Sequence record: PZ509022.1
DNA: 64,000 bases
From: a phage
Direction: 5' to 3' (one strand)
The notes under the pieces were generated by a model. The model had not been told where the DNA came from. It searched no databases and was given only the letters and a program-made list of their open reading frames with translations. Shown piece after piece: positions 38,832 through 40,427 of the stretch (positions are counted from its first letter, which is position 1; every line of letters begins with the position of its first letter). Made by a program: the position numbers and the translations under genes.

Positions 38832-38907
38832 TGGTCGAGGCAGTAGGGATCGAACCTACGACCTAGGACTTAGAAGGTCCTTGCTCTTCCTTCTGAGCTA
38901 TGCCCCG
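38832..38907 (-). tRNA. tRNA-Arg (anticodon UCU)
   Basis: Hand-folded 76-nt cloverleaf: acceptor CGGGGCA, anticodon loop CTTCTAA, T-arm GTAGG-TTCGATC-CCTAC, encoded CCA. Confidence 0.8.
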
Positions 38908-38911
38908 TAAT

Positions 38912-38987
38912 TGGGGTGACCGATGGGAGTCGAACCCATGACTACGAGAATCACAATCTCGAGTTCTACCAACTGAACTACGGCCAC
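38912..38987 (-). tRNA. tRNA-His (anticodon GUG)
   Basis: Hand-folded 76-nt cloverleaf: acceptor GTGGCCG, anticodon stem CGAGA/TCTCG, loop TTGTGAT, T-loop TTCGACT, CCA. Confidence 0.7.
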
Positions 38988-39081
38988 ATTAATACCTACT
39001 CCAACAATCAAGATGTCTTCACACGAAATTAAGAGAAGAGTGATCAGTTCAACCCCGATAATCGCGTCAAGTAGATATTAA

Positions 39082-39097
39082 TGTGACAATTGTCACA
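39082..39097. promoter_or_regulatory. Perfect 16-bp palindrome TGTGACAATTGTCACA (CRP-consensus-like half sites TGTGA-N6-TCACA)
   Basis: Read directly in the spacer between tRNA-Asn and tRNA-His. Confidence 0.3.
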
Positions 39098-39101
39098 AAT
39101 T

Positions 39102-39176
39102 TGGCGGACGTGATAGGATTCGAACCTATAACCAATCGCTTAACAGGCGATCGCTCTGCCATTGAGCTACACATCC
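39102..39176 (-). tRNA. tRNA-Asn (anticodon GUU)
   Basis: Hand-folded 75-nt cloverleaf: acceptor GGATGTG, anticodon stem ATCGC/GCGAT, loop CTGTTAA, T-loop TTCGAAT, CCA. Confidence 0.7.
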
Positions 39177-39180
39177 AAAT

Positions 39181-39267
39181 TGGTGGGGAGTGATGGAGTC
39201 GAACCACCCGAGTCGCAATGACAATGGATTTACAGTCCACACCGCTACCTCTACGGGATAACTCCCC
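39181..39267 (-). tRNA. tRNA-Tyr (anticodon GUA), type II with long variable arm
   Basis: 87-nt: acceptor GGGGAGT, anticodon loop CTGTAAA, long variable arm, T-loop TTCGACT, CCA. Confidence 0.6.
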
Positions 39268-39280
39268 TTAATTCTTAATT

Positions 39281-39355
39281 TGGTGGCCCTGGGTGGAATT
39301 GAACCACCATCTGGCGATTATGAGTCGCTTGCTTGAACCTTCCAGCTACAGGGCC
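39281..39355 (-). tRNA. tRNA with CAU anticodon (Met, or Ile if lysidine-modified)
   Basis: 75-nt: acceptor GGCCCTG/CAGGGCC, anticodon loop CTCATAA, T-arm GGTGG-TTCAATT-CCACC, CCA. Confidence 0.6.
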
Positions 39356-39356
39356 T

Positions 39357-39432
39357 TGGTGCTGATTGACGGAATCGAACCGCCGACCTTCTCATTACAA
39401 GTGAGTTGCTCTACCTACTGAGCTAAATCAGC
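39357..39432 (-). tRNA. tRNA-Thr (anticodon UGU)
   Basis: 76-nt: acceptor GCTGATT/AATCAGC, anticodon loop CTTGTAA, T-loop TTCGATT, CCA. Confidence 0.7.
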
Positions 39433-39437
39433 AAAAC

Positions 39438-39527
39438 TGGCGGAGGCGATAGGATTTGAACCTATGAGTCGCCGGAGCGACTGCCGGTTTTCAAGACCGG
39501 TGCATTAAACCACTCTGCCACGCCTCC
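39438..39527 (-). tRNA. tRNA-Ser (anticodon UGA), type II
   Basis: 90-nt: acceptor GGAGGCG, anticodon stem CCGGT/ACCGG, loop CTTGAAA, long variable arm, T-loop TTCAAAT, CCA. Confidence 0.75.
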
Positions 39528-39530
39528 AAA

Positions 39531-39538
39531 TATTTATA
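39531..39538 (-). promoter_or_regulatory. Late-promoter-like TATAAATA box (minus strand) at the segB 3' end / tRNA-Ser 5' junction
   Basis: Plus strand tatttata at 39531-39538, about 4-11 nt upstream of the tRNA-Ser 5' end. Confidence 0.35.
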
Positions 39539-40184
39539 TATTGTTAATTTGATTTAGAATTCTTTTTGCTTGAGTATGACTTACACCAATATGCTTAGCA
39601 TATTTAGATAATTCACCACGCTTAGAAAAATCATATAATTTAGAAATTTCTATTCTTCTTTTTCTTTCATCCGCCGAAACTTTTGCTTCGTTTGCTTTTG
39701 CTATTTTACGTTTAGCTTCTTGAGAGTGAGTTTTACCAGCAAAGCCATTCTTCATTAATCCATTTGAAGACCATCCTTTTAATTTTCCGTTAGAATGTGC
39801 CTTTTTAACACCCAATGAAATTAATTCGCGTTGCTGGTCTGTCATAGGATAATTATTTATATGATCCCATCCACCTTCACCACCAAGTTTTAAATTATAC
39901 ACATCTGGTCTATTTAAAAACTCTTCCGTGACAATATTTTTCTCGGCTTCAAGCATAGATTCTTTATCATCAAAATACTCTAATATTTCTTTAGAAAAAT
40001 TTTCTATACCATACTTATCTTGGGCTCTTTTTAATAATTTACCAGAACCCATATATCCATCATCTAAATTTTCGGTAGAATGCACACCAATATAAATTTT
40101 ATTATTAATTTTATTTGTTATTTTATAAAGATAAAAATGCATATCAGTCCCTAATAAAGAACTGAGCGTCTCACGACGAGTCAT
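39534..40184 (-). CDS. segB: GIY-YIG homing endonuclease SegB, inserted within the tRNA cluster
   Basis: 216-aa ORF; N-terminal GIY-YIG motif (YLYKITNKINNKIYIGVHS); occupies the gap between tRNA-Gly and tRNA-Ser as segB does in T4. Confidence 0.85.
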   Translation of the reverse strand: MTRRETLSSLLGTDMHFYLYKITNKINNKIYIGVHSTENLDDGYMGSGKLLKRAQDKYGIENFSKEILEYFDDKESMLEAEKNIVTEEFLNRPDVYNLKLGGEGGWDHINNYPMTDQQRELISLGVKKAHSNGKLKGWSSNGLMKNGFAGKTHSQEAKRKIAKANEAKVSADERKRRIEISKLYDFSKRGELSKYAKHIGVSHTQAKRILNQINNI

Positions 40185-40187
40185 AAA

Positions 40188-40261
40188 TTGGAGCGGATAA
40201 TGAGAATCGAACTCACATCATCAGATTGGAAGTCTGAGGTAATGCCATTATACGATATCCG
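40188..40261 (-). tRNA. tRNA-Gly (anticodon UCC)
   Basis: 74-nt: acceptor GCGGATA/TATCCGC, anticodon stem TCAGA/TCTGA, loop CTTCCAA, T-loop TTCGATT, CCA. Confidence 0.75.
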
Positions 40262-40266
40262 CAAAT

Positions 40267-40353
40267 TTGGTGCGAGAAGTGGGACTCGAACCCACAAGGA
40301 AATCATTCCGCAGCATTTTAAGTGCTGTGCCTTTACCAATTTGACCATTCTCG
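40267..40353 (-). tRNA. tRNA-Leu (anticodon UAA), type II
   Basis: 87-nt: acceptor GCGAGAA, anticodon stem CAGCA/TGCTG, loop CTTAAAA, long variable arm, T-arm GTGGG-TTCGAGT-CCCAC, CCA. Confidence 0.8.
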
Positions 40354-40354
40354 C

Positions 40355-40427
40355 GCTGGGAATAAAGGACTCGAACCTTTGCATCCTGGAATCAAAATCC
40401 AGTGCCTTACCAACTTGGCTAATTCCC
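40355..40427 (-). tRNA. tRNA-Gln (anticodon UUG), CCA not encoded
   Basis: Acceptor TGGGAAT/ATTCCCA, anticodon stem CTGGA/TCCAG, loop TTTTGAT, T-arm AAAGG-TTCGAGT-CCTTT; 1-nt spacer to tRNA-Leu (dimeric precursor arrangement). Confidence 0.75.

Follow-up and report, generated by a model that had tools for sequence, protein, structure and literature searches.

A tRNA cluster with genes for Tyr, Asn and His tRNAs, and with an endonuclease gene in the tRNA-Pro slot, in a T4-like phage

Phage T4 encodes transfer RNAs (tRNAs) for Gln, Leu, Gly, Pro, Ser, Thr, Ile and Arg, and already in 2008 it was reported that T2L, RB1 and RB3 carry tRNA genes that T4 is without, those of T2L including Tyr, Asn and a CAU 'Met' gene (Brok-Volchanskaya et al. 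2008, PMC2330249). The same work established that the T4 endonuclease SegB cleaves inside tRNA genes, recognises a T-arm motif and prefers the T2L tRNA-Asn gene, in which its preferred cleavage site lies, and that upon SegB homing into T2L the Met(CAU), Tyr, Asn and Arg genes of T2L are lost (PMC2330249). In T6, a SegB-driven amplification of tRNA-Tyr has been described as acting against the Septu defence system (Chihara et al. 2026, PMC13096335). Here we describe the corresponding tRNA/stable-RNA cluster in a 64,000-nucleotide stretch of phage DNA (sequence record PZ509022.1; hereafter the window), which contains ten tRNA genes, among them Tyr, Asn and His, and a homing-endonuclease gene (seg) in the slot of tRNA-Pro. 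We consider it highly probable that this cluster is a tRNA/stable-RNA unit of the T2/RB type, shaped by endonuclease-linked recombination, whose tRNAs supplement those of the host and aid counter-defence. The layouts on which the comparison is built are the following:

T4: Gln, Leu, Gly, Pro, Ser, Thr, Ile(CAU), segB, Arg, rnaD, rnaC (8 tRNAs)
T2: Gln, Leu, Gly, Pro, Ser, open reading frame (ORF), CAU, Tyr, Asn, Arg (9 tRNAs)
T6: Gln, Leu, Gly, 'Thr' gene, CAU, Tyr, segB, Arg (7 tRNAs)
vB_EcoM-UFV05 and IMG/VR locus L008: Gln, Leu, Gly, Pro, Ser, Thr, CAU, Tyr, Asn, His, Arg, no endonuclease gene (11 tRNAs)
Window: Gln, Leu, Gly, seg, Ser, Thr, CAU, Tyr, Asn, His, Arg (10 tRNAs)

The tRNA genes and the layouts of relatives

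ARAGORN predicts ten tRNA genes on the minus strand at 38832-40428, and the Rfam model RF00005 (gathering threshold 29 bits) recovers the same ten, all above the gathering score. Nine of them score 59-74 bits (E 1e-10 to 1e-14), and tRNA-Tyr scores 30.2 bits, a marginal value because its D-stem is weak. Listed along the minus strand, with ARAGORN coordinates and Rfam scores for the tRNAs, the cluster reads:

40355..40428, minus strand, tRNA-Gln(UUG), 67.4 bits, 65/73 identical to T4
40268..40354, minus strand, tRNA-Leu(UAA), 59.3 bits, 87/87 identical to T4
40189..40262, minus strand, tRNA-Gly(UCC), 63.3 bits, 73/74 identical to T4
39534..40184, minus strand, seg, a free-standing GIY-YIG homing-endonuclease gene, Pfam GIY-YIG E 6.3e-6, PHROG 314
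39438..39527, minus strand, tRNA-Ser(UGA), 62.6 bits, 87/87 identical to T4
39357..39432, minus strand, tRNA-Thr(UGU), 72.9 bits, 73/76 identical to T4
39281..39355, minus strand, CAU-anticodon tRNA, 59.9 bits, T2 type
39181..39267, minus strand, tRNA-Tyr(GUA), 30.2 bits, long variable arm and weak D-stem
39102..39176, minus strand, tRNA-Asn(GUU), 74.1 bits, 75/75 identical to T2
38988..39101, minus strand, structured Asn-His spacer of 114 nucleotides (nt), minimum free energy -30.7 kcal/mol, z -3.5
38912..38987, minus strand, tRNA-His(GUG), 65.1 bits, canonical cloverleaf
38832..38907, minus strand, tRNA-Arg(UCU), 66.1 bits, T2 type

Both programs agree with the ten minus-strand genes and anticodons proposed in a first-pass annotation of this DNA, whose coordinates proved right to within one base. 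Neither program rejects the His, Asn or Tyr fold or finds a tRNA-Pro: the latter is absent from the 64-kb window by ARAGORN and Rfam and does not appear at E<=1 around the cluster, and a relaxed Rfam search of 37900-40700 for a missed Pro or other tRNA returned nothing additional. The repertoire does differ from that of T4, as had been claimed, in that the classical eight-tRNA set has Pro(UGG) and is without Tyr, Asn and His, the reverse of what is found here. Many Tequatrovirus (T4-like) genomes match the cluster region at 97-98% identity. The window itself shows 97% identity to Tequatrovirus genomes annotated with this layout, roughly 475 genome records of the genus match closely, and judged by its sequence the window belongs to this genus; the cluster lies between the trna.2-4/ipI/57B genes and rnaD/rnaC on the minus strand, in synteny with T4, RB18 and NR1, and has the position, the orientation and the common Gln-Leu-Gly and Ser-Thr genes of the Tequatrovirus tRNA/stable-RNA cluster.

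A 2.5-kb query spanning the cluster is covered to at least 80% by 37 GenBank records, and an identical layout is already annotated in RB18, AR1, vB_Eco_NR1 and others. The gene order of these three phages (Gln Leu Gly/seg/Ser Thr CAU Tyr Asn spacer His Arg/ORF) is that of the window, at 97-98% DNA identity and with point differences only, for example one base each in the Tyr stem, the Thr stem and the spacer palindrome. The annotated tRNAs 001-010 of vB_Eco_NR1, a near-identical complete genome, all fall within this cluster, and therefore a Pro gene is present nowhere else in NR1. The remodelling of the cluster that the first-pass annotation had proposed is thus real, but it is not peculiar to this phage. 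In vB_EcoM-UFV05 and L008 every one of the ten tRNAs of the window is present, as are the Asn-His spacer and the ORF beyond Arg, but tRNA-Pro(UGG) stands in place of seg; they therefore look like an 'empty-site' allele.

Comparison with the classical T-even phages places the window nearer to T2 in several genes. T2 shares its CAU (75/75), Tyr (86/87), Asn (75/75) and Arg (74/76) alleles and the ORF beyond Arg, but it has retained Pro, has neither Thr nor His, and carries an ORF between Ser and CAU. T4 shares the position and orientation, the identical Leu and Ser genes and nearly identical Gly and Thr genes, the subsequent rnaC and rnaD, and the presence of a GIY-YIG endonuclease gene among the tRNA genes; unlike the window it has Pro and is without Tyr, Asn, His and the post-Arg ORF, its segB stands between Ile and Arg (the Tyr-Asn-spacer-His slot of the window) and encodes a different C-terminal domain, and its CAU (annotated tRNA-Ile) and Arg tRNAs are other alleles (47/72 and 49/70 identical). 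By these matches, the CAU and Arg tRNAs of the window are of T2 type and not of T4 type. T6 resembles the window in a near-identical tRNA-Tyr (85/87), in a SegB-type gene inside the array and in lacking an intact tRNA-Pro; it differs in that its segB, of T4 type, directly follows Tyr and in having no Asn, His or Ser.

The T6 gene annotated as tRNA-Thr (AP018814 66642-66716) is itself a hybrid, composed of the 5' end of tRNA-Pro and the remainder of tRNA-Thr joined in the shared TAGCTCAGT, and therefore the 3' half of Pro, Ser and the 5' half of Thr have been deleted in T6. The acceptor stem of this hybrid is mispaired.

Across wider sets of records, the Tyr-Asn-spacer-His block occurs in 187 phage records, Tyr-Asn alone in more (T2 included), and the T4-type Pro gene in 440. 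More distant T4-like phages have from 2 to 13 tRNAs at this locus according to an IMG/VR survey with the Trna.3 protein, which covers mostly distant T4-like phages (<=61% identity). Because layouts differ so among relatives, variation in the cluster is the rule and T4 is merely one layout, remodelled as much as the phage of the window.

An endonuclease gene in the place of tRNA-Pro

The seg ORF divides Gln-Leu-Gly from Ser-Thr-CAU-Tyr-Asn-His-Arg. The two subclusters of the first-pass annotation are therefore indeed split by a GIY-YIG ORF, but that ORF, which had been called segB, is neither T4 segB nor in the position of T4 segB. Its protein matches PHROG 314 'homing endonuclease' (E 1.5e-55), and residues 15-131 align with residues 1-117 of T4 SegB at 83% identity (97/117, BLASTP), with near identity over the first hundred residues. 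Equivalents of the catalytic Y17/G19 are present; mutating the YIG residues inactivates SegB of T6 (PMC13096335). Beyond residue 131 BLASTP gives no similarity to T4 SegB, and the annotators of RB18 had remarked 'C-terminus divergent' on the counterpart of seg; 56 phage records contain this C-terminal half at an identity of 95% or more. Compared with a T4 SegB orthologue, seg has the catalytic domain but neither the C-terminal (DNA-binding) half nor the Ile-Arg locus, and by alignment it is a chimera of a SegB-like catalytic half and a C-terminal half unrelated to SegB.

The gene occupies the Gly-Ser interval, that is, the Pro slot of T4, T2 and UFV05. In an alignment from Gly to Ser with UFV05 and T4 the flanks are identical, and about 80 bp, consisting of ATTTA, the 74-nt Pro gene and one further base, are swapped cleanly for about 650 bp. 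This alignment indicates that Pro was lost by clean replacement with seg. Remnants of tRNA-Pro beside seg were sought and rejected, since the 46-nt leader and the 73-nt tail compare with T4 tRNA-Pro about as shuffled sequences do (p ~0.08 and ~0.5, respectively). By analogy with SegB homing in T4 x T2L crosses, homing probably caused the replacement in this lineage.

Taken as a whole along the minus strand, the unit begins with Gln, Leu and Gly, continues with seg, Ser, Thr, the CAU tRNA (probably of Ile2 type), Tyr, Asn, the spacer, His and Arg, and ends with the ORF, rnaD and rnaC. Among close relatives, the fullest layout comprises eleven tRNAs and lacks an endonuclease gene; the window would differ from it by one event (Pro to seg), T4 by a separate one that placed segB where Tyr-Asn-His stand and brought in other CAU and Arg alleles. 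As seg sits in the Pro slot and T4 segB in the Tyr-Asn-His slot, two separate endonuclease-linked swaps are called for: one would have taken Pro in the lineage of the window, and the other Tyr-Asn(-His) in the lineage of T4. The proximate cause would be homing-endonuclease-linked gene conversion or recombination in a mosaic hot-spot. The repertoire does not represent an adaptation peculiar to this phage alone, nor is it new as a finding, being already known from dozens of annotated genomes, from the T2-type tRNAs and SegB homing described in 2008 and from the Tyr defence described in 2026. The locus serves rather as a worked example of how tRNA content among T-even phages differs via homing-endonuclease-linked cassette swaps, not by gradual adaptation, with T4 not being the ancestral reference.

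Several side observations concern endonuclease genes of this type. The true start of seg is probably the second ATG, at 40142, because T4 SegB begins at the second methionine here. Just upstream of this ATG, at 40144-40165, there is a 9-pair hairpin (TCAGTTCTT TATT AGGGACTGA) which sequesters the likely Shine-Dalgarno sequence of seg and could repress endonuclease translation within the tRNA precursor transcript. The ORF within the T2 cluster (AP018813 67710-68111), annotated as 'tail sheath monomer', resembles seg in the C-terminal half only (41.5% identity), and looks like an endonuclease remnant or a gene for a DNA-binding domain alone.

Counter-defence, codon demand and the retention of the genes

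Endonuclease-linked recombination may account for who has which gene; what keeps the tRNAs in the cluster is a separate matter, for which we propose two benefits. The tRNAs would supplement those of the host for AUA, AGA, UUA, GGA, UCA, ACA, Tyr and Asn codons in an AT-rich phage, and, in the light of the T6 and T5 experiments, tRNA-Tyr and tRNA-Asn/Thr of the phage would also offset host tRNAs destroyed by Septu, retron-Eco7 and PARIS.

A stronger version of the second benefit, in which the extra tRNAs are kept mainly for counter-defence, as substitutes or decoys for host tRNAs cleaved by defence nucleases or by toxins of the colicin E5 type, is a serious contender that we nevertheless regard as the less probable account. 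It draws on experiments with T6, whose tRNA-Tyr has been detected by northern blot and, when overexpressed or amplified, counters Septu and rescues infection from it, while T4, being without tRNA-Tyr, failed to escape (PMC13096335). Retron-Eco7 acts like Septu and is countered by the tRNA-Tyr of T5 (PMC13096335). The AriB nuclease of PARIS cleaves tRNA-Lys as well as E. coli tRNA-Thr(UGU) and, more weakly, E. coli tRNA-Asn(GUU) between positions 40 and 41, and escape from PARIS needs the T5 versions of tRNA-Lys/Thr/Asn. Against it, Septu cuts the T6 tRNA-Tyr as well (PMC13096335), so that the wild-type copy number is not protective, and colicin E5, which cleaves tRNA-Tyr, His, Asn and Asp (PMC1635277), is a bacteriocin and not a phage defence; that Tyr, Asn and His make up three of its four substrates is a coincidence, not evidence. 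Published experiments thus back the first-pass suggestion of a counter-measure to host anticodon nucleases for Tyr, through Septu and retron-Eco7, and for Asn/Thr, through PARIS. The nucleases concerned are not anticodon nucleases of the classical kind, as they cut in the variable loop or in the anticodon stem.

Around the AriB site, the tRNA-Asn of the window has G39, C40 and G41, and that of E. coli U39, C40 and C41. Cleavage of tRNA-Lys by AriB depends critically on position 39, and the differences at 39 and 41 might confer resistance to AriB.

Adaptation to codon usage alone, with Tyr, Asn and His gained and Pro lost to match the demand of the phage, appears unlikely. We compared codon frequencies between 66 long window ORFs and 41 ORFs that the same mechanical calling gave in 50 kb of E. 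coli K-12. Relative to E. coli, the window is enriched in AGA/AGG (5.9x), AUA (5.4x), UCA (3.7x), ACA (3.5x), GGA (3.5x) and UUA (3.0x), as well as in Tyr (1.8x) and Asn (1.7x) codons, and Pro codons overall stand at 0.73x. These values make codon supply a plausible benefit for most of these tRNA genes, and to this extent the adaptation proposed in the first-pass annotation stands for Tyr and Asn. It fails for His, whose codons are at 0.64x; moreover, Lys codons are at 1.69x and tRNA-Lys is not encoded, CCA and CCU (read by the T4 tRNA-Pro) are enriched 1.6x and 2.6x despite the loss of Pro, and this loss coincides exactly with the endonuclease gene. Phages that are ~97% identical in shared genes carry from 7 to 11 tRNAs in differing combinations, and because such near-same coding sequences go with different tRNA sets, the distribution of the genes among phages is not accounted for by codon supply.

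That some of the genes are decaying pseudogenes is very improbable: tRNA-Tyr does combine its marginal score and weak D-arm with a free-energy fold no better than that of shuffled sequence (z -0.9), its T6 counterpart is reportedly rather unstable (PMC13096335) and tRNA-His is without G(-1), but the T6 tRNA-Tyr is expressed and active (PMC13096335), the perfect cloverleaf of tRNA-His is kept across several phage genera via compensatory changes in the anticodon and T stems, and the tRNA-His of T5, also with U at -1, is according to the T5 GenBank record an effective amber suppressor once its anticodon is replaced.

The combined reading of an endonuclease-shaped unit with codon and defence benefits has points against it as well. 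The target site and homing activity of seg are inferred only, and the direction of the event (insertion of seg vs. a later gain of Pro) relies on parsimony and on the missing Pro remnants. Mechanically called ORFs from just 50 kb of E. coli DNA and the 64 kb of the phage make up the codon baseline. His codon demand lies below that of E. coli, and a defence nuclease or system that targets tRNA-His during infection by phages is not known; because of this low demand and the lack of a known targeting nuclease, tRNA-His is unexplained by either selective argument.

Individual RNA genes and the leader hairpin of tRNA-His

The CAU-anticodon tRNA, identical to the T2 gene, is matched best in E. coli by CAT-anticodon genes that carry the RefSeq label tRNA-Ile, with a full-length identity of 81.6%. 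It shows the sequence features of tRNA-Ile2, namely the anticodon, an elongator-type acceptor stem and ileX/ileY as closest host homologue, and its cloverleaf contains C4-G69 and C5-G68, which are said to be determinants for TilS (lysidine synthetase), reportedly from work of Ikeda and colleagues in 2005. Most likely it is an AUA-reading, lysidine-modified tRNA-Ile2 and not a tRNA-Met; the annotators of RB18 likewise took it as an AUA reader. The tRNA-Gln is identical to the NR1 and RB18 genes and differs from that of T4, T2, T6 and UFV05 solely in the anticodon stem-loop (CTGGA TTTTGAT TCCAG here, TAGCA CTTTGAC TGCTA there), a variant common to NR1, RB18, L008 and a further locus (L018). In tRNA-Thr, A27 and A43 stand where T4 has a C27-G43 pair, leaving a 4-bp anticodon stem; RB18 and L008 have this variant and NR1 does not.

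The 3' part of the transcription unit comprises the following features:

38465..38815, minus strand, ORF of 116 residues between tRNA-Arg and rnaD, PHROG 3355 (function-unknown family), E 5e-53
38349..38465, minus strand, rnaD homologue (species 2 stable RNA), 88.1% identical to T4 rnaD over 118 nt (blastn)
38204..38342, minus strand, rnaC homologue (species 1 stable RNA), 98.6% identical to T4 rnaC over 139 nt (blastn)
38130..38153, minus strand, terminator-like hairpin and T run, 10-pair stem with 7 G-C, from a consensus scan only

The ORF has no Pfam match; T2, RB18, RB51 and NR1 also possess it, and T4 has none at this position. The terminator-like hairpin probably closes the tRNA/stable-RNA transcription unit.

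The tRNA-His module, with U at -1, a covarying leader hairpin and features in common with T5, is the only part of the cluster that might merit bench work. The tRNA has C73, an encoded CCA and the GUG anticodon and is 80.3% identical to E. coli hisR. Bacterial HisRS normally needs G(-1), and the RNase P cut is normally shifted upstream by one nucleotide through an encoded G(-1):C73 pair. The gene has the GUG and C73 of a bacterial-type tRNA-His but not a genome-encoded G(-1) opposite C73: the window and all T4-like and T5-like copies examined carry T at -1, and E. coli hisR carries G.

Precisely at this position ends the outer helix of the hairpin formed by the Asn-His spacer (5' arm 39069-39082, 3' arm 38988-39001). 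Among 12 distinct T4-like sequences, all 14 outer pairs are preserved, and what they enclose ranges in size from a short loop to ~90 nt; 97.6% of the cells in the outer helix are paired, vs. <=55% in slid controls, four pairs are changed on both sides, and the covariation score exceeds all 500 shuffles. The helix with its compensatory changes is found in more than one genus of T4-like phages. The tRNA-His with ~70 nt of its leader is also found, 92% identical, in Jiaodavirus phages of Klebsiella. No Rfam family matched the spacer hairpin, and the possibility that the spacer is a degenerate tRNA (e.g., Asp) or a known RNA family was rejected after a search at E<=10 gave noise only. A scan of the spacer and of the region ahead of Gln for sigma-70 consensus sites gave 11 sites vs. 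8.7 expected, too near to expectation to be informative, and a search of the papers available on phage tRNA-His without G(-1) or on T5 RNA III found nothing relevant. Directly after the 3' end of tRNA-Asn, at 39082-39097, there is also a perfect 16-bp palindrome, TGTGACAATTGTCACA, which in relatives has one central mismatch.

We tentatively raise two readings of this arrangement, which together we hold to be possible and somewhat unlikely: the leader hairpin at U(-1) may be a dedicated maturation device of tRNA-His, or the tRNA may be without position -1 and serve as a poorly charged decoy. In the former case the leader helix, with its last pair A:U(-1) stacked on G1:C72, could replace G(-1):C73 in directing RNase P, the mature tRNA-His would then retain an extra 5' nucleotide for HisRS, and a stable RNA of ~100 nt (RNA III in T5) would be released. 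If true, either reading would mean that phages of enterobacteria have an RNA element not described before and reach tRNA-His identity in an unusual way.

The nearest described counterpart is found in T5, whose annotation includes 'RNA III, stable RNA with unknown functions'. It differs from the spacer of the window in its scant similarity of primary sequence and in the body of the adjacent tRNA-His, and a stable RNA is annotated for T5 only. Nevertheless, it is a 106-nt hairpin abutting tRNA-His, and, as in the window, its closing helix reaches position -1 of tRNA-His, where U and not G is found and where the T5 annotators start the tRNA; across T5-like phages, as across the T4-like sequences, the outer helix is retained while the interior is variable.

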